The notes below the pieces were generated by a model, which was given only the letters and a program-made list of their open reading frames with translations, was not told the DNA's origin and made no database searches. From Chloroflexota bacterium (GTDB taxonomy: Bacteria; Chloroflexota; UBA11872; VXOZ01): a stretch of 64,000 bases of DNA. The stretch covers positions 2,837,044-2,901,043 of the forward strand of contig OZ242272.1 in NCBI GenBank assembly GCA_965207135.1, in the 5' to 3' direction. Positions 2,873-52,717 of the stretch are shown here, one piece after another (the stretch's first letter is position 1; every line of letters starts with the position of its first letter). Both the position numbers and the translations under genes were made by a program.

Positions 2873-3436
2873 TTGGATTCGCCAGGTGAAAGGGAACCGA
2901 CAATGGTTGGCCGAGAGCTAATACATCGAGCAGGCGTAAGCATTACACTTGTAGTGAGCAGCATGCTTCTCCTTACAATGCCGTTACTCGCCCACTACTT
3001 TCTTGGATATAGCGCAGTGGACGTAGGTGACAATGGACGCGAAATCCGCTGGCTGGATTATACCCAGTACGATGATGCGCGCTCTTGGGCAATTGACCAG
3101 TGGCACGCACAAGGCAAAGTGGCAATTTTACCACAAGCTGCAGGACACATCGTCGACCTCGAATGGCGTGACTACAATGACTGTGGCCCGGATGCCTACA
3201 TTGCATATTATCAATACTATCCGTATGGTATTGACAAAGTATACATGAACACGTGCAAGATGAATAGCAAGACATCTGCACAGAAGCGGTCCGTGGCAGT
3301 GCACGAGCAAGGCCATGCCTTAGGGCTGGCCCATAATCCAAGTAATGATCAGATTATGTATGAGTTCCCCGCGTCAATAGCTTACACCACGCCGCAGGCG
3401 CATGACCTCCAGGATTATCACGAACTTTGGCCCTAA
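2873..3436 (+). CDS. Secreted metzincin zinc metalloprotease, snapalysin/M7-like
   Basis: HEQGHALGLAH (HExxHxxGxxH) is followed by a Met-turn in IMYEFP. The N-terminus has a hydrophobic signal/anchor (ITLVVSSMLLLTMPLLA). The size, about 180 aa, is typical of snapalysin-like enzymes. The start could instead be the internal Met at 2903. Confidence 0.7.
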   Translation: MDSPGEREPTMVGRELIHRAGVSITLVVSSMLLLTMPLLAHYFLGYSAVDVGDNGREIRWLDYTQYDDARSWAIDQWHAQGKVAILPQAAGHIVDLEWRDYNDCGPDAYIAYYQYYPYGIDKVYMNTCKMNSKTSAQKRSVAVHEQGHALGLAHNPSNDQIMYEFPASIAYTTPQAHDLQDYHELWP

Positions 3437-3515
3437 TGAGCAATTGCTCGGGAAGATGCAGCGCACCGCTGGTGCTGCGCAAGAGTCCAAGTGTAGTTGG
3501 AAGAAAGTAGGTACG

Positions 3516-4109
3516 ATGAAGGCCATAGTGCGAAGTATGAACTTGCTCTTGGGAACGCTCCTCTGCGTTCTAGCCGTTACAGGTTGCGGCACTGCCGGCC
3601 CGCAGACCACTGGCTCGTGGTCGTTTAATCACAAGGACATTCGCAAGGTGGTGGGCGCCTCCACCCACATATTCGTCGGTCGGGTAGTGGCAGTGGAGGG
3701 CAACAAAGGAATACCGACGTCAGGGCCAGGCAATGAGTTTATCCCGCAGACGCAATTCTCTGTAGAAGTGCTGGAGAACATCAAGGGTGAGCTCTCCGGG
3801 ACCGTAACGGTGAACCAAATGGGTGGGACCGATGTCAGCGGCACCGTCGTGGTCATGAAGGGAGATACACTCCTTGAAGTTGGCGAGACCTACCTGCTAG
3901 CCACATGGCATAGCTCAGATGATGGCTGGCATAGCATCGTAGCCGAAGGCTATGGAAACGTGAAGGTTGAAGATGCAGATAAGCGGTCACGAGAAGTGGA
4001 GCGATATCGCTCGGCAATAGTGCATCAGATACTGCCGTCATCCCCTGAATTCGAGCAAGTTGGAACAGTACCGGTTGAATTCAGGCTGCCGAATGCGTCT
4101 GAACGCTAG
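3516..4109 (+). CDS. Hypothetical lipoprotein
   Basis: Start at the internal ATG 3516 (MKAIVRSMNLLLGTLLCVLAVTGCG) with a lipobox LAVTGC. The gene overlaps the 3' end of the protease gene in another frame. No recognisable domain. Confidence 0.55.
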   Translation: MKAIVRSMNLLLGTLLCVLAVTGCGTAGPQTTGSWSFNHKDIRKVVGASTHIFVGRVVAVEGNKGIPTSGPGNEFIPQTQFSVEVLENIKGELSGTVTVNQMGGTDVSGTVVVMKGDTLLEVGETYLLATWHSSDDGWHSIVAEGYGNVKVEDADKRSREVERYRSAIVHQILPSSPEFEQVGTVPVEFRLPNASER

Positions 4110-4262
4110 GTCTGCCTACAGAGGAGTCGCGGCGAATCCTGGTTGGCTTGTCAGCTTGGTGAAACAGGTGGGAATGGACAAATAGCATAGGGACATGAGA
4201 TGTACTGCTCCCATGGTGTTGCATCCCTTTCTCGCGCTATCCCCATTCAGATGTCTGTGCCG

Positions 4263-6752
4263 CTACGCCGTAGCCTTCACCCGATTCAGTTCCGGGTGTA
4301 GTGCAAGGGCGAGGACTTCGCTCACATTCTCAACCGGGTGAAACGTTATGTCGTCCCGCACGTGTTCCGGGATGTCAACCAAGTCTTTCGTATTCTCCTT
4401 CGGCAAGATGATCGTGCGGATACCGGCGCGGTGCGCGGCGAGTACTTTTTCCTTGAGGCCGCCGATAGGCAGCACGCGGCCGCGCAGAGTCATTTCGCCC
4501 GTCATGGCCACGTCACGCCGCACCGCCCGCTCGGTAAGCGCTGAGATGAGCGCCGTCGTGAGCGTAATGCCGGCGCTCGGGCCCTCTTTCGGCACGCCGC
4601 CCGCGGGCACATGTATGTGGACGTCCAGTTTTTCCCAATTGAAGTCCTGCAGGCGCAGTCGCTTTGCGTGCACGCGGGCGTAGCTTAATGCCGCGCGACC
4701 GGATTCCTTCATCACTTCACCGAGTTTGCCGGTCAACAGGAGTTTGCCCTTGCCTGGCACGAGGGTTACTTCCACCGCGATGATATCGCCGCCGAACACC
4801 GTCCAAACGAGACCTGTTGCCGTGCCGACTTGGTCTACGTCTTCCGCCATGCCATAGAAGAACTGGGGCGCGCCCAGAAACGTATTCAGGTTCCGCGTGC
4901 TCACTGAGACCGTTGCGTTCTCGCCCTCTGCATGCTTGCGCGCGACCTTGCGGCAGACCGTCGCCACCTGTCGTTCCAGATTGCGCACGCCCGCCTCCCG
5001 CGTGTACTGGCGCACCATGCGGCGCAACGCGCCTTCGGTAAAGCGCACGTTGCTCTTCTTCAAGCCGTGCTCGGCCCGCTGCTTCGGCACAATGTAACGA
5101 GTGGCGATGGGCAGCTTGTCTTCCTCGGTATAGCCGGGAAGTTCGATCACTTCCATCCGGTCGCGCAACGCAACTGCCAAAGTGTCTACGGTGTTGCCCG
5201 TAGTTATAAAAATGACGTTTGAGAGATCGTAGGGCACCTCAAGATAGTGGTCCGAGAAGGCGTAGTTTTGCTCCGGGTCCAGCACCTCCAGCAAGGCCGC
5301 CGACGGGTCCCCGCGAAAGTCTGCGCCCATCTTCTCGATCTCGTCCAGCATGAAGACAGGATTTACGGTGCCCACTTGGCGCATGGCCTGCAGAATTCGC
5401 CCCGGCAAAGCCCCCACGTAGGTGCGCCGATGGCCGCGAATCTCGGCCTCGTCACGAATTCCGCCCAGAGACATGCGCACGAATTTTCTGCCCAGTGCTT
5501 GCGCAATCGAAAGGCCTAGGGATGTCTTGCCCACTCCGGGCGGCCCCACGAAGCAGAGAATTGGCGTGCGCACGTCGGGCGCAAGCTTGCGCACCGCGAT
5601 GTATTCGAGGATGCGTTCCTTAACTTTGGGCAGGCCGAAGTGATTCTTGTCTAAGACCTTGGTCGCGTGCTCGATATCGAGATCGTCTTGGCTCGGCTCT
5701 CCCCACGGCAGCGCCAGCAGCCAATCAAGATACGTCTGGATAACGCTCACTTCCGGGCTGGCCGTGGGCATTGCTTCCAACCGGTCGAGCTCTTTGTACG
5801 CCTTCTCTCTTACATCCTCAGGCAGTGGAGTCTCCTCCACGCGCTCGCGCAGCGCGGCAATGTCGCTACTGACCTGATCGGTCTCTCCCAGCTCTTTATG
5901 GATGAGCTTAAGTTGCTCGCGCAAGAAGCGCTCGTGCTCCTCAGCGTCCGTGGCGGTGGGCGCGGCATCCTCGTCGATCTTCTGTTGCAACGCCAGAATC
6001 TCTAACTCGCGCCGCAGGTGGGAGATCACCTTTTCCACACGAGCGGTCACTTCGAGCTCTTCCAGCAACTCCTGTTGCACCGGCGTCGTCAGATCGATAG
6101 TGTACGCGATGAGGTCTGCCAGGGCGCCTGCGTCATTTGTGTTGATTGCTTGCACGTACGCCTCTTCGGGAAGGTCCTTGCTGAGTTCCACCGCTTCCTT
6201 GAAGAGCGCGAGCATGGCTTGCATCTGAGCCGCTAGCTCATCTCCATCCGCGGCCGGTGGCTCAACGACAATCGCCTGCACGCGTATGTGCGGGTCCATT
6301 TGAAGAAAGTGGGTAATGGCAAGTCGGCGTTTCCCATCAACCAGAATGCTCACGCTGCCGTCCGGCATCTTGAGCGTCCGGCGTATCGAGACCTCCACAC
6401 CCACAAGGTAGAAGTCTTCAGGATTAATGTCGTCGATCGTTGGGTCGCGCTGTGTGACCACGAATAGGCGCCGGTCGCTGTCGAGCGCATTGCTCACGGC
6501 CTCCAAGGACCGTTCGCGCGCCACGATCAGCGGCACCGTCATGCCTGGGAACACCACCTGGTCGCGAATTGCCAGCACCGGCAATTCAACCGGATGCAGC
6601 ATGGCCTCCATCAAGTCCACCTGCTGGTCGCGGCGGCCCCCGGATCGCGACTTCCGCCGCTTGGCTCCGTCTCCGTTCGCGGTCGCCGCCTCAGAGCGCT
6701 CTTTCGTAGATTTCTGTTTTTTGTCTGCCACTGCCTCGTTCTCTCTTGCCAT
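4263..6752 (-). CDS. lon: ATP-dependent protease La (Lon)
   Basis: Walker A GPPGVGKTS, a Lon substrate-binding N-domain, and the proteolytic Ser motif PKEGPSAG. The start is taken at MARENEAVADKK (ATG at 6752). Confidence 0.93.
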   Translation of the reverse strand: MARENEAVADKKQKSTKERSEAATANGDGAKRRKSRSGGRRDQQVDLMEAMLHPVELPVLAIRDQVVFPGMTVPLIVARERSLEAVSNALDSDRRLFVVTQRDPTIDDINPEDFYLVGVEVSIRRTLKMPDGSVSILVDGKRRLAITHFLQMDPHIRVQAIVVEPPAADGDELAAQMQAMLALFKEAVELSKDLPEEAYVQAINTNDAGALADLIAYTIDLTTPVQQELLEELEVTARVEKVISHLRRELEILALQQKIDEDAAPTATDAEEHERFLREQLKLIHKELGETDQVSSDIAALRERVEETPLPEDVREKAYKELDRLEAMPTASPEVSVIQTYLDWLLALPWGEPSQDDLDIEHATKVLDKNHFGLPKVKERILEYIAVRKLAPDVRTPILCFVGPPGVGKTSLGLSIAQALGRKFVRMSLGGIRDEAEIRGHRRTYVGALPGRILQAMRQVGTVNPVFMLDEIEKMGADFRGDPSAALLEVLDPEQNYAFSDHYLEVPYDLSNVIFITTGNTVDTLAVALRDRMEVIELPGYTEEDKLPIATRYIVPKQRAEHGLKKSNVRFTEGALRRMVRQYTREAGVRNLERQVATVCRKVARKHAEGENATVSVSTRNLNTFLGAPQFFYGMAEDVDQVGTATGLVWTVFGGDIIAVEVTLVPGKGKLLLTGKLGEVMKESGRAALSYARVHAKRLRLQDFNWEKLDVHIHVPAGGVPKEGPSAGITLTTALISALTERAVRRDVAMTGEMTLRGRVLPIGGLKEKVLAAHRAGIRTIILPKENTKDLVDIPEHVRDDITFHPVENVSEVLALALHPELNRVKATA

Positions 6753-6766
6753 AAACTTTAATTCAC

Positions 6767-7435
6767 CTATGTGGTCGCAAGACCACACCGTTTCAACAAA
6801 GCTGCGGGATTCTCCCGGCTAATTGCTTCGATCTGCGCTCGCTCCAGTCCCGCACCAAGTATGATATTGGCCACCACGGACTCCGTGAGCAGGTCTCCCG
6901 GCGCGTGCGTGTCACTGTTCACGATCATGACAGCGCCGACTTGCTGACAGACCCGCGCCACGCAACCGTTAGCGGCGCTGTGTCCCTTGCGCGCGCTGAG
7001 CTCAAATGCCAGGCCGCGCTCGCAGCCAACGCGGGCATCTGCCGCCGTCAGCAGGCCGGGATGCGCCAGGACATCAACCGCCGCGCACTCCGCCGCCGCG
7101 GCATTTGTGCCCGGCGGCACGGGCTCCGAAATCGTCTCGCCGTGGACCGCTACCACTTGGGCCCCCGCCGCTTTGCAGCGTTCTGCGAGCGCGCCGAGTG
7201 CCCGCGGCGCCACGTGCGTAATCTCTACGCCGGCAAGCGCGGTGATAGGCAGTTCCCGGTTTATGACTTCACATTCACGCAGCAAGGCTTCGCAGACGTA
7301 CTGATAGTTAGCGTACCCCACGTGATCGGTGATAGCTATTGCCCGGTAGCCGACGGCAACGGCGCGCTGCACAAGCTCCGCGGGAGAGAGCACCCCATCG
7401 CTGAGGAACGTATGGGAGTGAAAATCAATAATCAT
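6767..7435 (-). CDS. PHP-domain metal-dependent phosphoesterase
   Basis: N-terminal MIIDFHSHTFLSDG...AIAITDHV PHP signature with downstream His/Asp ligands. It lies 14 nt upstream of lon on the same strand. Confidence 0.75.
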   Translation of the reverse strand: MIIDFHSHTFLSDGVLSPAELVQRAVAVGYRAIAITDHVGYANYQYVCEALLRECEVINRELPITALAGVEITHVAPRALGALAERCKAAGAQVVAVHGETISEPVPPGTNAAAAECAAVDVLAHPGLLTAADARVGCERGLAFELSARKGHSAANGCVARVCQQVGAVMIVNSDTHAPGDLLTESVVANIILGAGLERAQIEAISRENPAALLKRCGLATT

Positions 7436-7533
7436 TCGTGCAACGCATCAGTGACTGCCTAACCTCAAGTGAATTCCTACACTCAGTGTACCTAAGCGGA
7501 AGGAACGGCTACAAACCGCGGCGAGCGCACGGT

Positions 7534-9132
7534 CTATTTGACAAATGCCCGCAGCTCTTTCGCAATCTCCCCGCTGTTCACCACGGTTACGTCCCCCGCA
7601 CTGGCAAAATCAGTATCGACCCGCCACCACTGGAAGGCAGCCCGCTGCGCGCGCACAACGACGACGTTGCCATAGTCCTGCACGCCCATGGGCAGCCCAT
7701 AGCGCTCCAGCCAATTGGGCGTTCCCAATACAAAACTGGAAATCGCGGGTGCGCTGTCCATCAGGGCAACGTGCCGGGCAACTACCTCTTCCCAATCAAG
7801 CCCGTCATCGCCGGACGTATCCGCCGGCCGCGGGATGAGATATTTGGTAGCAAGCACTGAATCGAAGCCCTTGGCGCTAAGGATGTCAAAAACATTCAGG
7901 TAGGCGAACGTCTGGGTTTCGGGTTGCCATTGCAACACGCCTTTTTGGAAGAACTGGGTCGGCTTGCCCTCAAAGGTAATGGCGCGAGTGAGGGGATAAC
8001 CCAGCGCTCCGGGTCCTCCCACCCGCCGAAACTCCGCGAGAAACGGCACCGCGTGATACCAGTCCGAATCATCCACAACGTCGTAACACGGTATCGTCAC
8101 TCTGTTTCCGGCAAGCGTGGGCGTTTGGCCCGTTGTCTGACTGTAGCACGCAAACTCTCCAGTAACGTATTCGGTGAGCAAGCGCGGCGTCCCCTTTACA
8201 AAGCGCAACTGGATTGTGCGCGGCACGTACGCAGACTGTGTGGAAAACGACCACGAGCGCGCAAACGAGCCAACCCTGCTCCCGGCGGCATTTCCTGAAA
8301 CGCTTACGGTAAATGTTTGCCCCGCGCCGAGAGGAAGCTGGGTCATAAAGTAAGCCCAACCATCATCATCAACCCGGAGGAAGGGCAAAGACACTCCCGC
8401 TTGGTCAACGATCTCAATGTCCGTAATCTCGATCGGCTCCTTCTCCCAGGGCGACGTGCCGATGCTGATGGGACTGCCGACGAAGCCGTCGCGGCCCGGC
8501 AATGGGTTCGGCCGTTCCGTCCGCGGCAGGAATTCAGGCGGCACCGCCGTTTGCCCATTCCCGGGATAGGTGTAGAGGCGGTCCACGTCCGGCGCGCCGA
8601 CAAGACATCCACCTAGATTGAAAACACTGCCGTTATCGCTCTGCCCAAACCCCACGCGCGTGAGGGCCGGGTGCAACATGACTGTGCGGTGATAGACGCT
8701 GTTTACCAGGGCCTCCACCGCCGCTATCGGATCCTTACCAATAGTGGAGGCAGACTCGCCCGAGCATCTTCCGGTAAACCCCGCAGCCTTCATGCGGTCT
8801 GCGGGCGTCACGCCGGTGAAACCGAAACTCAGTGGGTCTTGCGCATGCCCGGTGAATCCATTGACTGCATAATACGCCGCGTGTCCCACTGCCGCTCGCT
8901 GCAACGCGGAGTCGACTTGCACAAGCGGCACCTGCGCATGCGCCCGCAATTCGTTCAGCCGCGCGACGGCTTGCGCTTGGGGCGTGGTTCCCGCCGCCTG
9001 GATTGGCGCCAGCGGTGCGAATAGCACACATAGAACGACAAGCGTGAATGCCGCCAAGGACTGCCTGAAGCTCCAGCCAGGACAAGCTGTCGCCGTGGAA
9101 GGGGAATAGTTCCCTGAGGATTGCCGATCCAT
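7534..9132 (-). CDS. Secreted CAP/SCP-domain protein with a C-terminal extension
   Basis: N-terminal signal (FTLVVLCVLFAPLAPIQAAG). A CAP-like block (LNELRAHAQVPLVQVDSALQRAAVGHAAYYAVNGFTGHAQD) is followed by about 300 aa of unknown function. Confidence 0.55.
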   Translation of the reverse strand: MDRQSSGNYSPSTATACPGWSFRQSLAAFTLVVLCVLFAPLAPIQAAGTTPQAQAVARLNELRAHAQVPLVQVDSALQRAAVGHAAYYAVNGFTGHAQDPLSFGFTGVTPADRMKAAGFTGRCSGESASTIGKDPIAAVEALVNSVYHRTVMLHPALTRVGFGQSDNGSVFNLGGCLVGAPDVDRLYTYPGNGQTAVPPEFLPRTERPNPLPGRDGFVGSPISIGTSPWEKEPIEITDIEIVDQAGVSLPFLRVDDDGWAYFMTQLPLGAGQTFTVSVSGNAAGSRVGSFARSWSFSTQSAYVPRTIQLRFVKGTPRLLTEYVTGEFACYSQTTGQTPTLAGNRVTIPCYDVVDDSDWYHAVPFLAEFRRVGGPGALGYPLTRAITFEGKPTQFFQKGVLQWQPETQTFAYLNVFDILSAKGFDSVLATKYLIPRPADTSGDDGLDWEEVVARHVALMDSAPAISSFVLGTPNWLERYGLPMGVQDYGNVVVVRAQRAAFQWWRVDTDFASAGDVTVVNSGEIAKELRAFVK

Positions 9133-41687: not shown

Positions 41688-41853
41688 CGCACCGAAGCAC
41701 CCGGAATTGGGTGGATCTCGCGAATCAGTGAACGCTTGAGCCCAATTGGCAATTAGCGCGGAGCTTATGCCCTGCCTCTTGACGCAAGCAGGAAACACAG
41801 TCTCGGGCCAAGCGCCTAGGCTCCAGTTCCCAGACGATTGCGGAGGGACTTCT

Positions 41854-42645
41854 GTGATTATCGACGCACACTGCTATCTTGGCCGAAATCCAATCTGGGA
41901 AGCCCAGGGCATGCCTGCCACCATGCACGGCAAAGACATGGTGGCGTACATGGACCGGGGCGGCGTGGAGCGGGCGCTGTGCGCGCCGCCCGGCGTGGGC
42001 GCCGCCGACGACTTTGCCGCCGACCACGAGCGCATTGCGCGGGCCATCGCCGACTATCCCGACCGCATCTACGGCTTTGTACGCGTCAAGCCGCCGCGCG
42101 GCCGGCAAGCCATCGACGAGATGCACTATTGGCTGCAGGAGCGCGGCTTCCACGCCGTGAAATTCAACACAATCGATGCTTCCACCTACGGCGCAGGCAC
42201 CTACACGCTCGCCGACCGCGCGCTGATGGGGCCGGTCTTGGAAGCAATCGCGGCGCTTGAGGTTCCGGTCATGATCCACACGGGCGAGGAGCATGGCCAC
42301 ACGTGCACGCCGGCGCTGGTGGCCGATCTCGCCCTCGACTTTCCCGACATTACCTTCATTATCGCCCACGCGGGCGTGCCGGGATTTCTCCCGGAAGTTA
42401 TCCCCTTCATGCGCAGAGCTGAGAATACGCTCGTCGACCTCGCCGGCGTACTCCGTCCCATCTTTGTGCAGAACCTCGTGGACGCCATTGGCGCCGAGCG
42501 CGTGCTCAACGCCACAAACGCCCCGCATATGCCCATCGAATTCGGCCCCCAACTCATCCAACGCCACTGCCGCAAGCTCACTGCCGCGCAACAAGAGGCC
42601 ATTCTATGGGGGAATGCCACGAGTCTGCTCAGCATAGCTACGTAG
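41854..42645 (+). CDS. Amidohydrolase-2 (PF04909-type) TIM-barrel metal-dependent hydrolase
   Basis: The start is taken at GTG 41854 (VIIDAHCYLG), with a GGAGGG RBS. Conserved His/Asp metal ligands are present (IIDAHCY, HTGEEHGH, IIAHAG). Its 3' end overlaps the convergent helicase gene by 8 nt. Confidence 0.68.
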   Translation: MIIDAHCYLGRNPIWEAQGMPATMHGKDMVAYMDRGGVERALCAPPGVGAADDFAADHERIARAIADYPDRIYGFVRVKPPRGRQAIDEMHYWLQERGFHAVKFNTIDASTYGAGTYTLADRALMGPVLEAIAALEVPVMIHTGEEHGHTCTPALVADLALDFPDITFIIAHAGVPGFLPEVIPFMRRAENTLVDLAGVLRPIFVQNLVDAIGAERVLNATNAPHMPIEFGPQLIQRHCRKLTAAQQEAILWGNATSLLSIAT

Positions 42646-45193
42646 GCGGATACCGCTCCAGAAGGTAAAGAAGGCGTTTATCGTCTACAAGTTCTACGCG
42701 GCTGTCCCGGAACTCTTGCCAAGCACTCTTTGAAAACGTCCCGTTCGTCACGACAACTGCGTTCGTGGCGTCCGGTTTACTGCCAAGCACACCCGCAAGC
42801 TGACGTACAACTGGTACACCAACGACACTTTCACTCTCGGTATGCTTGCACTGGATAAGACGCTTCTCCCGAGCCCCGATTGCCTGTCGCTCTGCGACAA
42901 CGTCTACGCCTCCGTCACGACTATCGCGTGTCTTGTCTGCCCGATAGCCCATTGCCTGATAGAGCCGCGCAACAAGCTCTTCAAACCCAGACGGACTAAG
43001 CTCCCGCAGTCGTTGCTTGTCCCAAGGACCCGACCATCGGGGTGCGCGCGACGCACCCAGTCCCTCGTCAGCTCTATGAGAGTGACCCAAACGCGATCCG
43101 TCATTCCCGCTTTCGCGGGAATCCATCTTCTCTTGGCGAGCGCGCTGTTCCGGCAACGGCAGGCCCATTACCTCAAGCAAGTCTTCTAGTGTGAGCTTTT
43201 CTTCAACCTCGCTCTGGGCTTCACTAGGGTCCTCTACATACGCCTTGAAAAGCGCTTCCTTACCTTGAAGATTCTCGTAGATGCCCTCCTCGACCGTGTC
43301 TATAGTGAAGAGAGACGTATTGAAGACTGTTTTCCCCTGGCCAATGCGCAACACTCGTCCCAACGCCTGCTTGTGCGTCGCTGGGTTCCACCAGTGATCA
43401 AACAGAATGACATGGTTCGCTTTCTGCAGATTCAAGCCCACGCCTCCCGCTTTCAGACCCATCAACAGCACTCGGAAGCTAGAATCGTCCTCAAAGGTCT
43501 TCAGTAATTCTTCGCGCCGCCCGGTGCCCAGCTTGCCATCATAGATATCCAACATCTGGAAGTCACGCTCCAGTCCTTCTTTGAGAGAAGGCAAAGAGAC
43601 CCCTGGGTACTGCGAAAAGATCAGGATTTTATCTTCGGGCGCAATTTCACGGAGGTGCTCTGTCAGGTAATCGGCCTTTGCGCTGCTGCCTGTCTCCGGG
43701 TCGAAATTGCAGAGTTGTTTGAGCTTTTGAAACCGCGCAAAGACATGCACCTTCGTCACGTTCTCTCCCAAGTCGCGTATCTCCTCCTGCGCTTCATTGA
43801 GCGCAGCATTATAGGCAACGCGCTGCTCCGGCGTAAGCCTCAACCATCGCTCTTCTTCAACCACTGGCGGGAGATCAAGCACATCTTCCTGTCGCCGCCG
43901 CAGCATGAGAGGCCGCATGAGTTCCTCCCTTTCTTCAGGTGAGCGCCATTCCCATAGCGCAAGTGCATCAATGCATCTCTTTACGTGTGCTGCCACTGTG
44001 GCGTCTACGGCAACAAGTTTCAGTATGCTCGCAAGGTCATCCGGTTTGTTTTCCAAGGGTGTTGCCGTCAGCGCCCAACAGCGTCTACGCGGTAGGCCTC
44101 GCACCGCCCGCGTTACCCTTGCGTTGGGATTCTTGACCTTGGCGGCTTCATCCAGAATCACGAGCTCGAATTCCGCCAGTTGCTGCACTTTCGGCAAGTC
44201 TTCTCGTAGCGTCTCGTACGACACAACCCAGACGTGCGCTGGCACTTCCCACTGTTGCGCCCGCTGTTCCTTGGTGCCGTCAACCACCTGAACCCGCACT
44301 TCGCGCTGCGCCCATAGATCCCATTCTCGCTGCCAGTTTATGAGCACAGACTTCGGCGCTACCGTCAAGATGCGGATCACACTTGCCTTCCTAAGCAAGA
44401 CACGGGCCGCCACAATCGCCTGCGCCGTCTTGCCTAGACCCATTTCGTCCGCCAGCAACGCGCCGCGCCGTTCTACAAGGAATTCAATGCCTTGAACTTG
44501 ATAAGGCACAAGCTTCTTACCGTCGGGAAACGGGAATACGCTCGTAAAGGTCTTTGGGTCAAGTGGCGGCTGCAAATAGAGCCACAAGAGTTCAAGCACA
44601 TCCGCGATCGAGACGCCCTTTTCCTTTGTCGGCGGCTTCTTCTGCTTTGCGGTGCGCTCGCGGCGGCAGGTTTCGCAAGAACCGCGCGGCAAGCCATGCT
44701 TGCATGCAGTGGCAGCAGCACTCCCCAGCGACGGCAGTAAGGAGGGTTGCTCGGAAGCAGCGTCGTCAGCAGCGGTTCGCCCTACGATTCTCACGTTCTT
44801 GCCGAGCAAGTCAATCATATCGTGTACAGCAGGAAAGGGCATTGTCGTGACAGACTGAAGCAATGCCAGCGCGTCGAAGACCTCCACGTCCGCCTCTATG
44901 CCGACCTCCATAGACAGTACACTCGGCGCGTCAATATGCGCAGGCACCACGTAGGTGCTCACTGCCGCCAAAGCGAGATCATCGCTGCAGTGAGGCTCCG
45001 CCAGCATTGGAACATCTACTGCCTCCGACGAAAGCGGCACAAACTTCTGCAACGTGTGATGAGGGAAAACCTTGTGGATTTCGTTCAAAGCACGAGGCGT
45101 AAGTCCGGTGTCAAGCCGGTCAACCTCAAGCAACTGCGGCAGTGAAAACGGCGCTGCCCGTTTTGCGGCATTGAGGCGAAGTTCTCCCAACAT
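42638..45193 (-). CDS. SNF2-family helicase fused to a C-terminal Mrr-type restriction endonuclease domain, with an N-terminal region of about 200 aa of unknown function
   Basis: SNF2_N motifs LVPYQVQGIEFL, DEMGLGKT, ILDEAAKVKN and LTATPLEN. Helicase-C motifs LLMGLKAGGVGLNLQKANHVILFDHWWNP and QALGRVLRIGQ. The C-terminal 130 aa (FEELVARLYQAMGY...GGVDVVAE...LIQCKHT...VVTNGTFS) are Mrr_cat-like. The N-terminal region contains a possible small Zn-binding cluster CKHGLPRGSCETC. GGGAG RBS. Confidence 0.8.
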   Translation of the reverse strand: MLGELRLNAAKRAAPFSLPQLLEVDRLDTGLTPRALNEIHKVFPHHTLQKFVPLSSEAVDVPMLAEPHCSDDLALAAVSTYVVPAHIDAPSVLSMEVGIEADVEVFDALALLQSVTTMPFPAVHDMIDLLGKNVRIVGRTAADDAASEQPSLLPSLGSAAATACKHGLPRGSCETCRRERTAKQKKPPTKEKGVSIADVLELLWLYLQPPLDPKTFTSVFPFPDGKKLVPYQVQGIEFLVERRGALLADEMGLGKTAQAIVAARVLLRKASVIRILTVAPKSVLINWQREWDLWAQREVRVQVVDGTKEQRAQQWEVPAHVWVVSYETLREDLPKVQQLAEFELVILDEAAKVKNPNARVTRAVRGLPRRRCWALTATPLENKPDDLASILKLVAVDATVAAHVKRCIDALALWEWRSPEEREELMRPLMLRRRQEDVLDLPPVVEEERWLRLTPEQRVAYNAALNEAQEEIRDLGENVTKVHVFARFQKLKQLCNFDPETGSSAKADYLTEHLREIAPEDKILIFSQYPGVSLPSLKEGLERDFQMLDIYDGKLGTGRREELLKTFEDDSSFRVLLMGLKAGGVGLNLQKANHVILFDHWWNPATHKQALGRVLRIGQGKTVFNTSLFTIDTVEEGIYENLQGKEALFKAYVEDPSEAQSEVEEKLTLEDLLEVMGLPLPEQRARQEKMDSRESGNDGSRLGHSHRADEGLGASRAPRWSGPWDKQRLRELSPSGFEELVARLYQAMGYRADKTRDSRDGGVDVVAERQAIGAREKRLIQCKHTESESVVGVPVVRQLAGVLGSKPDATNAVVVTNGTFSKSAWQEFRDSRVELVDDKRLLYLLERYPPT

Positions 45194-45207
45194 GGCAAAT
45201 CTCCCAG

Positions 45208-45756
45208 TTAGCGAAAGCGTTCGTCCTCTATTTGGAGCACGCTCACCGCCTTCTCAATCCGCTCAAACGGCTCAAAGAGGTCAATGCTATCGGCTATATG
45301 ACGAAAAAGCTCTTCTGCTTCACGAATGTCATCCTTGTATTGAGGATCGGCCTCTAGTGAAACGGGTTGGGTTCGTTTCGACTCTACGGTAACGCCGGAC
45401 GAGTCGCTACCGACCGATAGAGTTTCACCGACTCGACGCAGAAAGATGACAGGCCAGTTTGCCGCATCCCGCAGCCCTACGAGAAAGGGTTTGTCGACTA
45501 AGAGAATCTCCGGTTTCACTTCAACCTTATCTAGAAGCGGTCTCCCGATTATGTCAATCCCCACGTGGGGCTCAAGTGAAGCTCCGTAGATCACTCTCTG
45601 CACTTGCGAGATTCTCACCGGTGCCGTTACGCGAAATTCCTGCGGCACGCCCCGTTCATCCGTAATGAGTACCGCCCCCAAACGCCCTCCTTCTTGGTTG
45701 ATAGCAAGCAGTGTGAGGAATCCTATTGCCAGCGCTTGCCCATTCCCGTCAGCCAT
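45208..45756 (-). CDS. Hypothetical protein (182 aa), translationally coupled upstream partner of the SNF2-Mrr gene
   Basis: Strong AAGGAG RBS 7 nt before ATG 45756. Its stop at 45208-45210 lies 14 nt upstream of the SNF2 start codon at 45193. No recognisable domain. Confidence 0.55.
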   Translation of the reverse strand: MADGNGQALAIGFLTLLAINQEGGRLGAVLITDERGVPQEFRVTAPVRISQVQRVIYGASLEPHVGIDIIGRPLLDKVEVKPEILLVDKPFLVGLRDAANWPVIFLRRVGETLSVGSDSSGVTVESKRTQPVSLEADPQYKDDIREAEELFRHIADSIDLFEPFERIEKAVSVLQIEDERFR

Positions 45757-45947
45757 CAGTATTCTCCTTGTAGACGCAAACTGCTACCGTAACGGTAATG
45801 TATTCAGTGACTGGCAAGCAAGAACGCACATATGCTCGCTAGCGAGTCTTGCCAACCGTTGAGTCCGCAGCGTAGCGTAAAGATTGATTTCGGCTTTCGC
45901 CGGCATGACGGCCTAGCTGCTGTCTATCTTCATAGCAACAACGTGGT

Positions 45948-45978
45948 GGGCGCAGGTTGCAAACCTGCGCTACCGGAG
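45948..45978. repeat. Hairpin repeat, family C, copy 2
   Basis: GGGCGCAGGTTGCAAACCTGCGCTACCGGAG lies in the divergent intergenic region between 45756 and 46046. Confidence 0.65.
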
Positions 45979-46045
45979 CAAACCACCTAAAACCCACTTT
46001 CATGGTAATGACGGATTTGTCAGGACGTTTGTAGGAGAGCCAGCC

Positions 46046-48097: not shown

Positions 48098-51000
48098 ATG
48101 GCCATAAGCGGTAAAGCATTGCAGCAACGCAACTATGGCAAGTTGCCGGAGATATTACCGCTACCTGACCTGATAGAACTACAAATGCGGTCCTTCCGCT
48201 GGTTTCAAACTGAAGGGCTGCGCGAAGTCTTCGCGGAGATTTCACCAATCGAAGACTTTACCGGCAAGAACTTCGAGTTGAGTTTCGAAGTGCCGGAGAA
48301 CCCCTTCGACAGGCCACCTTACGATGAGAACGAGTGCCGAAAACGCGACCTCACATACCAATCGCCGCTCCGTGTGCGGGCCAAGCTGCTCATAAAGCAG
48401 ACGGGCGAAATCAAAGAGATGACCGTTTTCATGGGCGACTTTCCGCTCATGAGCACGTCCGGCACGTTTATCTATAACGGCACGGAACGTGTGGTGGTGA
48501 GCCAGTTGGTGCGCTCGCCGGGTGTCTACTACACCCGCCGCGAAGACCCGTCCGGCAGCCGGTACCTCTACAGCGCCAAGCTCATTCCCAATCGTGGGGC
48601 ATGGCTGGAGTTCGAGACCAGCGCCAAGGACATTTTGACCGTAAAGGTAGACAAGCGTCGCACCATTCCGGTAACAGCGCTCTTGCGCGCGGTCGGTTAC
48701 GGGTCTGATTCAGAATTGTTCGGCCTCTTCCACGAAGTCGATACGAATGACAGTCACCCCTATATTGCCACCACCATCGGCGGACAGGACGGTGCCCAGC
48801 GGCGCGATCCTTCGGACTCCCACGAGACCGGCTTGCGCGAAGTTTACAAGCGCATTCGGCCCGGCGATCCGGTCACGCTCGATAACGCCAAGAACCTCAT
48901 CGAGTCAACATTCTTTAATAGTCGCCGTTATGACTTGGGCCGTGTGGGACGATACAAGCTTAACAAGCGCTTGCAGATGCCCACGCCGCCTGAAGTACGC
49001 ACGCTCACGCCGGAAGACCTCGTATACATCGTGCGGCGGCTCATCGAGCTCAACAATTCGCAGAATCCCCCGGACGACATCGATCACCTGGGGAACCGGC
49101 GCGTGCGTGCGGTGGGTGAGCTCTTGCAGAACCAGTTTCGCATCGGCCTGCTGCGCATGGAGCGCGTCATCAAGGAACGCATGACGCTCCAGGACCCGGC
49201 AACGGTAACGCCGGCAGCCCTGATCAACACCCGTCCGGTGGTTGCTGCAGTCCGCGAGTTCTTTGGCGGCAGCCAGCTTTCGCAGTTTATGGACCAGACC
49301 AACCCGCTTTCTGAGCTGGGGCACAAGCGCCGCCTCTCGGCCATGGGGCCGGGCGGTCTCTCGCGTGACCGCGCGGGCTTTGACGTGCGCGACGTGCATC
49401 ACTCGCACTATGGCAGAATCTGCCCCATCGAGACTCCCGAAGGCCCGAACATCGGCCTGATCGGCAGTCTGGCCAGCTATGGGCGCGTCAACGATTACGG
49501 TTTTATTGAGACTCCTTATCGGCGGGTATTCAAGTCTCTTACATTTACTGGCGCCGGAGAAAACCTTCTCGGGCATAGGGTAACAAGCGACGTCTACTTC
49601 AAGATTGAGTCCGGGAAGAAAGTCACTGAGAAGAAGATACGCGCTCTTGCAAATCTTGAGCTGGAAGGTACCAAAATTGCCGTCCGTCCCTTTTCAAGCA
49701 CATATGGAGTCGAACCCATTGCACTCTCGCGGGAGGAGGCAAGTGACTCGGTAATTGCGCCGGTCAATGTCTTCCATCGAGTCTCGGATTACTCGGATTA
49801 TATAGAGTTCTACGAGGACCGACCGAAGATTTACGCCGGTCACCGGTTCAAGCAAGGGTTACCAGAAGAGATTAGCTATTTGGATGTGCCCTCTGGCCAC
49901 TATCGACCTGTTCGAAACTCCATAACTTACGGACACGACGGCATTGACCCCAGCGGCCACGCAGCGAGGCAGGACATTGACACAGTCCTCATCTTGGCGG
50001 GAACGAAAGTTACCGAGAAACAGTTGGCAATCCTAAGGGACCTAGAGTTGGCAGGTGTCGAGATTCCCGTCCGTCCCTTTGTCAGCCAGGACGACAACGA
50101 TATCGTCAACTGCTCACGGGAGGAATTGGAAGAATCCGTAATCGCGCCAGCCGGTACCCCGGTCAACGACGCAGGTGAGTTCACAGAAGAACGTATCAAG
50201 GTGTATGACGGATCCGGGTTGCGAAATGACGCCTCAAACCGAGTCAACTATTTAGAGGAGTCCCCCGAGCGTTACCGGCGCGTCTATAACTCAATTGCTG
50301 TTTCACGTGACGGCATTGATCCAATCGGCCACACGGCGAGAAAAGATCTTACCATACGCGTAATCTCGGAGGGGGCTAAGATCACCAAGAAGCAGGTGGC
50401 GATTCTAAGAGACTTGAGGCTGGAAGGAACAAAAATTACCGTCCGTCCCTTTGCCAGCCCAATCGAAGACGATCTCGCCGCAATCTCCCAGGAGGAGTTG
50501 AAAAACTTCAAAGTCACGCCGTCCAATGCACCAATCAACGATATTGGCGAGTTCACAGAAGACCAAATCGAAGTGTATGACGGACGCGGCTTCCGGAAAG
50601 AGGACCCACAGCGGGTCAACTTTTTGGAGGTACCCTCCGGGAAGTACCTTAGTGCTGGAGACGTCTTGGTCTCTATCACCTTCGCAAATGACGGAGTAGA
50701 CCTCCGCGGACACGTGGCTGCACGAGAATTCAGGAAGCTCCTTATAGCAGAGGAAGCCAAGATCACCGAGCGAGAAGTAACACTTCTTAAGAAGGCACTG
50801 ATGAATGGTGCAGAAGTTCCATTACGTCCGTTTGCAAGCATGGATGCCGACCGTGTTACCTACCTCTCCAAAGATGTGCACGGTGTCTCCTATCTCTCCG
50901 CCGATGAGGAAGACCTGTACATCGTTTCCCAGGCAAATGCCCGCGTGAACGATGTGGGTGAGTTTGTGGAGGACCGTGTCGCCTGCCGTGCAGGCGGGCA

Positions 51001-52717
51001 GTTCCTGCAAGAGGTCCCCGGACGCATCGACTTCATGGACGTGTCGCCCAAGCAGATCGTGAGCGTGCCGACGTCGCTCATACCTTTCTTGGAGCATGAC
51101 GACGCAAACCGGGCGTTGATGGGCGCGAACATGCAACGGCAGGCGGTGCCGCTCCTCACACCGGAAGCGCCGTTGGTAGCCACCGGTATGGAATGGAAAG
51201 CGGCCGAAGACTCCGGTCAGGTGCTCTGCGCTGACGTTGACGGCATTGTCAGCAGCGCTACCGCCCGCGAAATCCGGCTGCTGGGCGATGACGGCGAGGA
51301 ACACATTTATCCTCTCAAGAAATTCGAGCGCACGAACGCTGCCACCTGCTTCAACCAGCGCGCAATTGTGCGCAAGGGTGAACGCGTGGTTGCGGGCCAA
51401 CCGCTTGCGGATAGCTCTTCAACGGACAACGGCCAGCTTGCCCTCGGACAAAACGTGCTCTGCGCCTTCATGTTCTGGGAAGGCGGCAACTACGAGGACG
51501 CCATCATCATCAGCGACCGCGTGGTGCAGGACGACCTTTTCACTTCCGTTCACGTTGAGAAGTACGAATGCGAAGCGCGCGACACCAAGTTGGGACCCGA
51601 AGAGATTACGCGGGACATTCCCAACGTTGCTGAAGAAGCCCTGCACAATTTGGATGAGAACGGCGTCATCTACGTGGGCGCGGAAGTCCACCCCGATGAC
51701 ATTTTGGTGGGCAAGGTCACGCCCAAGGGCGAAACGGACCTGACCGGTGAAGACCGGCTCCTGCGCGCCATCTTTGGCAAAGATGCCCGAGACGTCAAGG
51801 ATACGTCGAAGCGCATGCCGGCCGGCGAACACGGCAAAGTAGTAGACGTGCACGTTTTCAACAAGGAAATGGGCGACGAACTCTCCAGCGGCGTCAATGA
51901 AATGGTAAGAGTGTCCGTGGCCTCGAAGCGCAAGCTCATGGCCGGCGACAAAATGGCAGGCCGGCACGGCAACAAGGGCGTAGTGGCTCGCATCATGGCG
52001 GTCGAAGACATGCCGCACCTTGCCGACGGCACGCCGGTAGACATCGTGCTTAGTCCGCTTGGCGCGCCCTCACGCATGAATCTCGGTCAGATTCTTGAGG
52101 CGCATTTGGGCTGGGCGGCCCACGAACTGGGTTTCCAGGCCGTGGTGCCGGTCTTTGACAGCGCGGGCGAAGGTGAGATCGAGAGTGCATTGAATTCAGC
52201 GGGTCTGCCCAGCAACGGCAAAGACACGCTTTACGACGGCCGCTCCGGCGAAGCCTTCGACCAAGTAGTAACGGTGGGCTGGGTGTATATGCTCAAGCTT
52301 GCCCACTTGGTAGAGAATAAAGTGCACGCGCGGTCCACCGGCCCCTACTCTCTGATTACGCAGCAGCCCTTGGGCGGCAAAGCCCAGTTTGGCGGCCAGC
52401 GATTCGGTGAAATGGAGGTTTGGGCGCTGGAAGCCTATGGCGCCGCCTACACGCTGCAAGAGATGCTCACGGTAAAGTCCGATGACGTGCATGGCCGTGT
52501 GAAAACGTATGAGGCGATTGTCAAAGGGGAAGAAGTCCTCCAGCCGGGAATCCCGGAGTCTTTCAAGGTTCTCGTGAAGGAACTGCAGAGTCTCGCGCTG
52601 GCTGTTGAGGTGCTCAATGAGAATGAAGAAGAGATCCGCTTCTCTGAAGAAGGCGACTCAGAAGGCCTGCCCGATCTTGGCGGCATCAACCTGCAAGGTC
52701 GCGAGCATCACGAATAG
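48098..52717 (+). CDS. rpoB: DNA-directed RNA polymerase subunit beta, carrying a lineage-specific insertion of about 455 aa
   Basis: All beta conserved regions are present ([61 protein letters not shown]). The 1539-aa length comes from an insert between [10 protein letters not shown] and YLSADEED. Confidence 0.95.
49618..51000 (+). repeat. Four tandem modules of about 125 aa (about 375-390 nt) inside the rpoB insertion
   Basis: Units begin [75 protein letters not shown] and [25 protein letters not shown]. Each contains ...VIAP...ND.GEFTE..I.VYDG.G.R.....RVN.LE.P. The nucleotide composition is visibly AT-richer than the flanking rpoB. Confidence 0.75.

Follow-up and report, generated by a model that had tools for sequence, protein, structure and literature searches.

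Proteins that fuse a DNA motor to a nuclease are a recurring effector of bacterial immunity, as in ZorD, HmaA, DdmD and the Type I, III and ISP restriction enzymes, and how they choose their targets is mostly unclear. In the DdmDE system the binder has an RNase H/PIWI fold and is combined with a helicase and a nuclease of the restriction fold; PIWI domains hold nucleic-acid ends. The same three parts are found in the PIWI-RE systems (PMC3702460), and HmaA alone restricts phage T4, with ATPase motifs and nuclease both required for this (PMC11232893; PMC12839542). Here we analysed a stretch of 64,000 nucleotides from a Chloroflexota bacterium (contig OZ242272.1; hereafter the window), in which an 851-amino-acid (aa) SNF2 helicase fused to an Mrr nuclease is encoded directly downstream of a 182-aa protein. 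The pair exists as described, and the evidence that it is a conserved mobile module is good; we consider it a credible candidate for a motor-nuclease immunity module whose new partner would be derived from endonuclease V (EndoV).

An earlier note on this DNA, made from the sequence alone, had likened the large protein to ZorD of Zorya, which PADLOC describes as an SNF2 ATPase with an Mrr-like nuclease. That likeness holds within the SNF2 core and no further, as both PADLOC and NCBIfam indicate. The PADLOC ZorD models match at E 3.6e-68 over aa 223-667 only, with DpdE and DrmD nearly as high, and the NCBIfam model NF041790 reaches 146 bits against a cut-off of 1500, over aa 306-624 only; membership of ZorD was therefore rejected. 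ZorD also depends on the ZorABC membrane complex and has no small EndoV-like partner, whereas no ZorA, ZorB or ZorC was found in the window or in annotated related loci. DrmD (72-73 bits against cut-offs of 610-950) and DpdE (60.6 bits against 500) were rejected on the NCBIfam models too, and the genes beside the window pair include no DrmABC, Dpd or other cognate partners. Clustering with RapA, which the earlier note had raised as a counter-indication, was not found: the RapA model gives 47 bits against a cut-off of 576, and the nuclease residues are intact.

HmaA resembles the window protein in carrying a C-terminal PD-(D/E)xK nuclease behind an SNF2 motor. Its nuclease is however of the NOV_C/DUF3883 type, in a protein of ~1,180 aa, where the window protein has Mrr_cat, and in the Hma (Type-1 BREX-related) system it is accompanied by a DUF1156 methyltransferase and a DUF499 ATPase rather than by an EndoV-like protein. 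The PADLOC HmaA model matches aa 553-646 only (E 2.5e-19), with no Hma neighbours in the window, and membership was rejected. For DdmDE and PIWI-RE the relation is one of analogy, not membership: the window binder is a bare EndoV-like core of 182 aa without MID, PAZ or N domains, and the window helicase is of the SNF2 type, not the DinG or DdmD type. Mrr Type IV enzymes share the Mrr_cat domain with its D…QxK signature and the lack of a linked methyltransferase, but the window protein has no Mrr_N and instead an SNF2 motor and a separate partner. Full-text literature searches found no description of the small-protein/SNF2 pair; papers on BREX-related systems, Dnd, domain-centric discovery and YprA concern systems other than this one.

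An inserted two-gene cassette

The pair occupies the following positions in the window:

42606-46045, no strand assigned: inserted cassette, ~3.44 kb, absent from three close relatives
42638-45193, minus strand: helicase-nuclease gene, 851-aa open reading frame (ORF)
45194-45207, minus strand: intergenic spacer of 14 nt, between the TAA stop of the small gene (45210-45208) and the helicase ATG (45193)
45205-45201, minus strand: helicase ribosome-binding site (RBS) GGGAG, within the 14-nt spacer, just past the small-gene stop
45208-45756, minus strand: small gene, 182-aa ORF, with a predicted EndoV/PIWI-like RNase H fold; member of a large unannotated family
45769-45764, minus strand: RBS AAGGAG, 7 nt before the small-gene ATG
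45757-46045, minus strand: non-coding leader of ~290 bp 5' of the small gene, read from the sequence as the presumed promoter location

Both ORFs described in the earlier note are present on the minus strand, and so is the strong AAGGAG RBS ascribed to the small gene. The stop of the small gene does lie 14 nt before the helicase ATG; it does not, as had been claimed, fall inside the helicase RBS, since GGGAG follows it. The two genes are tightly coupled, and in homologous pairs the junctions are overlaps of 1-23 nt or similarly close. A sigma-70-type scan of the leader (45757-46045) identified no promoter site there, and scanning the locus revealed no convincing sigma-70 promoter or terminator. 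The genes around the pair encode S15, SecA, Amidohydro_2, a flavin (FAD) oxidoreductase, RpoB and RpoC, with rpoB/rpoC nearby and divergently placed. As the earlier note had stated, no Zor, methyltransferase, PglZ or PLD gene adjoins the pair in the window.

Comparison with relatives revealed that the cassette is an insertion, variably present among close relatives. Three genomes (L129, L130 and L131), represented by Mb-scale contigs on which the oxidoreductase homologues are 94%, 87% and 84% identical, have empty sites at which the Amidohydro_2 and oxidoreductase genes overlap by 4 nt with nothing between them. DNA alignment with these relatives places the break points of homology at ~42605 and ~46055. 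At 42606-42645 (plus strand) the last 13 amidohydrolase codons have been replaced by sequence of the cassette that overlaps the 3' end of the helicase gene, the protein ending in …EAILWGNATSLLSIAT and stop in the window versus …EAILGKNALRVFDIPA and stop in L129, and there is an 8-nt overlap between the new amidohydrolase stop and the convergent helicase stop region. In the window the oxidoreductase has a new leader, the 4-nt translational overlap with the amidohydrolase being gone. L005, a more distant genome (77% nucleotide identity), carries the cassette at the same site as the window; since closer relatives lack it, the distribution of the cassette does not follow relatedness. Such variable presence in close relatives strengthens an accessory or immunity reading.

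The composition of the insert had been described as AT-richer than its surroundings, which is true though the difference is modest: GC content is 55.3% for 42606-46045 compared with 58.6% for the window, and 1.3% of equal-sized windows are as low. GC content at third codon positions is 0.54-0.61 in the cassette versus 0.68-0.79 in neighbouring genes. The window shows no terminal direct or inverted repeats, target-site duplication, integrase or recombinase gene at the insertion, and a transposon or integrative-element origin was rejected for want of a target-site duplication, inverted repeats and an integrase.

In L129, the closest genome without the cassette, the gap between secA and the amidohydrolase gene contains an insertion (positions 3170-6192) that encodes an Eco57I-type methyltransferase and a BsuBI/PstI restriction endonuclease, along with an ORF of 200 aa. 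This restriction-modification (R-M) system lies ~2 kb away from the empty site, in a gap that corresponds to the window near 41690-41850, and its position in the secA-amidohydrolase gap means that this short stretch behaves as an insertion hotspot for defence genes.

Conservation, variants and contexts of the pair

The small-protein family is found almost always immediately upstream of one SNF2 clade. In L001, L004 and L005, whose small-protein homologues span identities of 34%, 38% and 69%, an SNF2-Mrr gene lies directly downstream of the small gene on the same strand, two of these three loci lying in unrelated genomic contexts. When species-representative genomes were scanned, an SNF2 gene was located directly 3' of the small gene in 11 of 11 loci in which a small gene was detectable, from Chloroflexi, Pirellulales, Planctomycetaceae, Schlesneria and Entotheonella; none of 65 more distant, longer SNF2 proteins from that scan has a small gene. 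A metagenome scan, seeded with the small protein as a 9-sequence alignment, returned 35 loci, with an SNF2 core downstream in 24 and the helicase N-terminal motif in 2 more. Eight of the 35 were too short to tell, so 26 of the 27 testable loci show the helicase, the sole exception being a truncated small-gene copy (L121) followed by 1.4 kb without one. The pair was also present in several contigs found by look-up. Synteny, which the earlier note had proposed as a check, is thus kept across phyla in both scans.

The conserved core of the module is the small protein plus the SNF2 protein, and the Mrr nuclease is dispensable in many relatives. No Mrr match was found in the helicases of the genome-scan loci, including all Planctomycetota, or in those of several metagenome loci. 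There is also a five-gene form, in which the SNF2 helicase gene is preceded by genes for a protein of ~260-290 aa and two BrxD-like P-loop ATPases and, in most cases, by one for a divergent small EndoV-like protein, at the following loci:

L087, 4232-10238: five-gene locus
L088, 4326-10187: five-gene locus
L127, 6435-12166: five-gene locus
L016, L017, L019 and L020: further five-gene loci

Three of these seven loci (L087, L088 and L127) have an Mrr-fused SNF2 protein, and the divergent small protein is encoded in L087, L088, L017 and probably L127. In L016, L019 and L020 a small gene would not fit, as the ATPase gene upstream runs directly up to the SNF2 ORF, and the helicase has no Mrr match. 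The ATPases give weak PADLOC matches only (BrxD, SngB, DndF), and the five-gene form, centred on the same motor, may be a distinct, as yet unnamed system of several genes. The earlier note had called the module minimal; a two-gene form does exist, and given the five-gene form the word applies in a relative sense only.

Several of the loci lie near defence genes, and this neighbourhood evidence is suggestive but anecdotal. Two are clear defence islands. The first, L089, contains an MmeI-like methyltransferase, an OLD/TOPRIM ATPase, a PDC-S26 nuclease, a DEAD-MZB helicase and another SNF2 gene; its partnered SNF2 protein has no Mrr domain, and the PDC-S26 nuclease is encoded by a PDDEXK_4 gene of its own, downstream of the helicase gene. 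The second, L127, contains HsdR, UDG, a stand-alone Mrr that carries an Mrr_N domain, NERD-UvrD, PDDEXK_1, HipA and Gp49/HTH. Elsewhere, the pair is accompanied by HicB and a transposase (L004) or by PIN, MazG and HTH_3 genes (L128), and the context of L088 is neutral.

In L089 the small gene lies in two frames (7390-7869 and 7808-7990, within 7390-7990), for which a frameshift, a sequencing error or early decay are possible explanations. In a Schlesneria genome (L018, 5264-6436), a DUF4238 gene is located immediately downstream of a nuclease-less partnered SNF2 gene; we take DUF4238 to be the hallmark of a reported single-gene defence system. In the window itself, rpoB (48098-52717, plus strand) encodes 1,539 aa, compared with 1,153 aa in L129 and L130 and 1,279 aa in L131. 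The extra sequence contains about four tandem repeats of ~100 aa each with the motif K(I/V)TEK(Q/K)(V/L)AILRDL.L.G..I.VRPF, and the repeat number seems variable between near relatives.

The helicase-nuclease and its small partner

The 851-aa protein divides into the following parts:

44519-45193, minus strand: N-terminal region, aa 1-225, mostly predicted disordered when modelled alone
44666-44704, minus strand: putative zinc knuckle C164-x-H166-G167…C173-x2-C176, invariant in 24 homologues
43244-44518, minus strand: SNF2 ATPase / double-stranded DNA (dsDNA) translocase core, aa 226-650, with Walker A GLGKT, DEAAKVKN and QALGRVLRIGQ (Pfam)
43010-43243, minus strand: variable linker, aa 651-728 (alignment)
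42659-43009, minus strand: Mrr_cat PD-(D/E)xK nuclease, aa 729-845 (Pfam and invariant columns)

Pfam assigns SNF2-rel_dom to aa 231-496 (E 2.9e-42, 145 bits), Helicase_C to aa 506-618 (E 1.8e-17, 64 bits) and Mrr_cat (PF04471) to aa 729-845 (E 7.1e-29, 100.7 bits), matching the domains that had been read from motifs alone; the quoted motifs lie at 249-256 (DEMGLGKT), 348-351 (DEAA), 375-382 (LTATPLEN) and 609-614 (QALGRV). In an alignment with four homologues of 36-71% identity, the motor residues GLGKT, DE, TxxPxEN and Q609/R613/R616 are invariant, and so are the nuclease residues D760, D764, Q781 and K783, including in homologues of only 36-37% identity. Neither Mrr_N (PF14338, winged-helix) nor NOV_C was matched in the window helicase by Pfam. 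The linker has a low-complexity distal part (~aa 682-724), which L004 lacks and L001 has in shortened form.

Proteins of 600-900 aa that combine SNF2, Helicase_C and Mrr_cat form a large family in database searches, at 33-41% identity. The top PADLOC matches of the window protein are the ZorD, DpdE and DrmD models, all confined to the SNF2 core, and among solved structures the Sulfolobus SNF2/Rad54-like core 1Z63 ranks first (E 8e-53). Behind this comes 8QY7 (E 6e-34), deposited only as 'DEAD/DEAH box helicase', which we assume, as a guess, to be ZorD. Because the PADLOC matches cover the SNF2 core only, the NCBIfam equivalogs are far below their cut-offs and 1Z63 is nearest, we assign the protein, by sequence comparison, as an SNF2 dsDNA motor of generic type that has an Mrr-type nuclease fused to it and falls outside the named defence helicase families. 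Among its close SNF2 relatives without Mrr, some (P0047 and P0049) carry a precomputed match to PF00542, the ribosomal L7/L12 C-terminal domain, which would be an odd fusion.

The N-terminal region contains two conserved motifs in the alignment, (A)GKAY around G138 and DVFDLLLPxLQPP at aa 198-210, in addition to the metal site that the earlier note had proposed as C-x-H…C-x2-C. The latter is borne out by C164, H166, G167, C173 and C176, all invariant in 24 N-terminal homologues, and one divergent homologue (L001) has the knuckle deleted. An AlphaFold2 model of the N-terminal 230 aa alone has a mean predicted local distance difference test score (pLDDT) of 54.7, and in it only the knuckle is folded with confidence (pLDDT 81-88), as a hairpin plus a helix. 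Of 42 helicases with a small-protein partner, 25 have the full motif set, (A)GKAY, zinc knuckle and DVFDLLLPxLQPP, compared with 0 of 63 helicases without one. From this confinement to partnered helicases, and from the tight coupling of the genes, we infer that the two proteins form a complex; the pattern is consistent with the motif set being a docking region for the small protein. With the ORFs, domains, motifs and metal site all verified, the earlier observation of a helicase-nuclease fusion with a coupled small gene is confirmed.

The small protein had been reported to match no recognised family, and this was borne out with the profile libraries used (PADLOC 2023, NCBIfam June 2026, Pfam and PHROGs), none of which has a model for it. 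The window protein gave no match in any of the four, and 125 scanned family members gave no Pfam or NCBIfam match; the sole PADLOC match among the 125 is a single Cas4_II match at the chance level (E 0.0046). A word-based search detected only 8 relatives, whereas an exhaustive profile search retrieved 1,603 cluster representatives at E<=1e-3, a number that falls to 1,254 with a threshold of E<=1e-10; almost all have a length of 170-200 aa. A 90%-identical relative belongs to an uncultured Chloroflexota bacterium. Comparing the family profile with PDB sequences produced chance matches only, and no relative was found in the viral collection IMG/VR using close-relative patterns.

The AlphaFold2 model of the small protein, built on a 125-sequence alignment, is confident (pLDDT 92.5, predicted template-modelling score 0.89). 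Its elements run beta-beta-beta-alpha-beta-alpha-beta, followed by further strands and two C-terminal helices, and in this model the protein has an endonuclease V/PIWI-type RNase H fold. After EndoV, the best structural matches are UPF0215 (11.6), RNase HII (10.1), Argonaute PIWI (9.0-9.5) and the UvrC C-terminal domain (8.9); Foldseek left the ranking unchanged, with PIWI weaker than EndoV. A fold search of BFVD, also a viral collection, gave generic RNase H matches only (E>=3e-3). The earlier note had allowed that the protein might prove to belong to a housekeeping family, and no such membership was found, though the fold is of the EndoV type. Membership of the EndoV family (Nfi, Endonuclease_5) was rejected in view of the lack of a Pfam match in the window protein or its 125 relatives, and membership of the Argonaute type in view of the length of 182 aa, the single RNase H-like domain and PIWI matches below EndoV. 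The small protein thus differs from both EndoV and UPF0215/DUF99 in having no sequence-level family match to either, and from EndoV further in the linkage of its gene to SNF2 and in missing the N-terminal helices and conserved Asp/Glu/Asp.

The catalytic set of EndoV consists of an Asp in beta1, a Glu in the helix after beta3 and an Asp at the end of beta4 (D43, E89 and D110 in T. maritima). We mapped these positions by secondary-structure order and weak alignment, a mapping that is firm for the absence of a conserved acid and not residue-exact. Local hhalign alignments with EndoV are weak (probability 4-14%) and global alignment gave nothing; the weak profile alignment sets window D88 opposite the catalytic Asp at the beta4 end, and E162-P-F-x-R166 opposite the EndoV P-E-P-T-R motif. 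Across the family, acids occur at <=13% in strand beta1 (residues 11-16) and at 26% at residue 88, and residue 53 is Gln in 99%. A different polar set, D33, E40, R42, T44, Q53, Y57, G58, D159, E162 and R166, is nearly invariant in the family alignment. The model and alignment suggest that the small protein is probably a divergent, non-catalytic EndoV-like protein.

Proposed mechanism and alternatives

On balance we lean, by a little, towards a horizontally acquired two-gene cassette that most likely serves as a DNA-targeting immunity system. In the scheme we propose, the EndoV-like subunit, having lost its Asp-Glu-Asp set, would bind the helicase, perhaps via the N-terminal motifs, and recognise some abnormal feature of DNA without being catalytic itself. 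Recognition would permit the SNF2 motor to move along duplex DNA, which the Mrr domain would then cut. Such a scheme would resemble motor-nuclease restriction enzymes and HmaA, with labour split as in DdmDE and PIWI-RE. As no methyltransferase is linked to the pair, discrimination of self from non-self would rest on what the sensor reads and not on host methylation. The wider proposal of the earlier note, an undescribed compact helicase-nuclease module with a novel accessory protein, fits these results and none of our in silico analyses refuted it, with defence and repair both conceivable as its role.

EndoV recognises deaminated bases, and also mismatches and flaps. We posit, as a tentative and rather unlikely extension, that the small proteins are a widespread unnamed class of immune specificity subunits: dead EndoV cores that would detect invading DNA by its ends or by bases that are deaminated, hypermodified or abnormal in another way, and would pass this target on to an SNF2 motor, whether or not the motor has a nuclease. 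Such a class would comprise at least 1,600 sequence clusters from several phyla, in two- and five-gene forms, and in the boldest version the protein would hold a short nucleic-acid guide, as a minimal proto-Argonaute.

Several observations weigh against the immunity reading. About half of the partnered helicases have no Mrr domain, the five of these scanned with Pfam (4 Planctomycetota, 1 metagenome) have no recognisable nuclease, and no consistent nuclease gene lies near Mrr-less helicases, whose downstream genes are mutually unrelated; with partnered helicases that have no nuclease, cleavage by the helicase cannot be the universal output. Clear defence islands account for only 2 of ~9 independent annotated contexts, the window neighbourhood is housekeeping, and in L001 the pair adjoins RecQ and RuvA, EndoV itself being a repair enzyme. 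The residue mapping onto EndoV is based on a profile alignment of weak probability (4-14%) and on secondary-structure order, and the polar cluster D33, E40, R42, Q53, Y57, D159, E162 and R166 could be a non-canonical active site. The nuclease-less variants in particular keep alive the possibilities of repair or remodelling and of an active small nuclease.

The alternative that survives best, unlikely in our estimate though deserving attention, is an accessory DNA-repair or genome-maintenance module, in which the EndoV-like subunit would find deaminated or damaged bases or stalled forks, the SNF2 protein would remodel DNA or clear proteins from it like Mfd, RapA or Rad54-type motors, and Mrr, where present, would incise. 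The EndoV fold, the RecQ and RuvA neighbours of L001 and the housekeeping surroundings of the window locus would fit such a role, as would the archaeal Rad54-like SNF2 protein that is the nearest solved motor and the many partnered helicases without a nuclease, which suit a remodeller. A maintenance function is however harder to reconcile with a patchy presence among close relatives, an insertion that disrupts an operon and a cassette of foreign-looking composition. R-M, OLD, HipA and PIN genes are co-located with the pair in other genomes, the fused nuclease is of the Mrr restriction type, and the loss of the EndoV catalytic residues would be unusual for a repair endonuclease.

The SNF2-Mrr protein might instead be potentially self-toxic, with the small protein as an antitoxin-like inhibitor or chaperone that is released or inactivated on infection; the outcome would be abortive infection, without specific DNA sensing by the small protein. 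The small gene comes first and is tightly coupled or overlapping, as is typical of antitoxin-toxin pairs; its product has no catalytic residues, and toxin-antitoxin genes neighbour several loci. We nevertheless find this doubtful, as the small protein is found with nuclease-less SNF2 proteins too, where there would be nothing for it to hold in check, and its well-conserved EndoV/PIWI nucleic-acid-binding fold exceeds what an inhibitor needs. The three five-gene loci without room for a small gene (L016, L019 and L020) also speak against it, with the qualification that their helicases have no Mrr match.

We consider it improbable that the small protein is an active nuclease or nickase working through a non-canonical acidic cluster (D33, E40, D159 and E162), delivered by the SNF2 motor and with Mrr as an optional second blade. 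RNase H-fold enzymes are typically nucleases, these four acidic residues are nearly invariant together with R42 and R166, and helicase variants without a nuclease still keep the small protein. Judged from secondary-structure order, however, the cluster would lie off the RNase H/EndoV active-site positions, and beta1 without an acid and an invariant Gln at the helix position are as in inactivated relatives. An orphan ZorD, left over from a type I Zorya system, is scarcely credible: ZorD models, which describe an SNF2 helicase with an Mrr-like nuclease, are the best PADLOC matches, but these stop at the SNF2 core with DpdE and DrmD nearly equal, the NCBIfam equivalog falls far short, 8QY7 (if ZorD) is a weaker match than the Sulfolobus protein, and the pair has a different conserved partner and no ZorA, ZorB or ZorC in the window or related loci.

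Returning to the immunity reading, the pair would be a compact two-protein case of the motor-nuclease effectors, in which the likely specificity or control subunit is an inactivated relative of a lesion-reading repair enzyme. It would offer an easily testable system for how an SNF2 motor is licensed on foreign DNA, for which the nuclease-less and five-gene variants are natural comparisons. If this reading is true, a large unannotated family of more than 1,600 clusters would join the defence catalogue, and a repair-enzyme fold would have been recruited as an immune sensor, standing between EndoV and the Argonaute PIWI domain, which share that fold.

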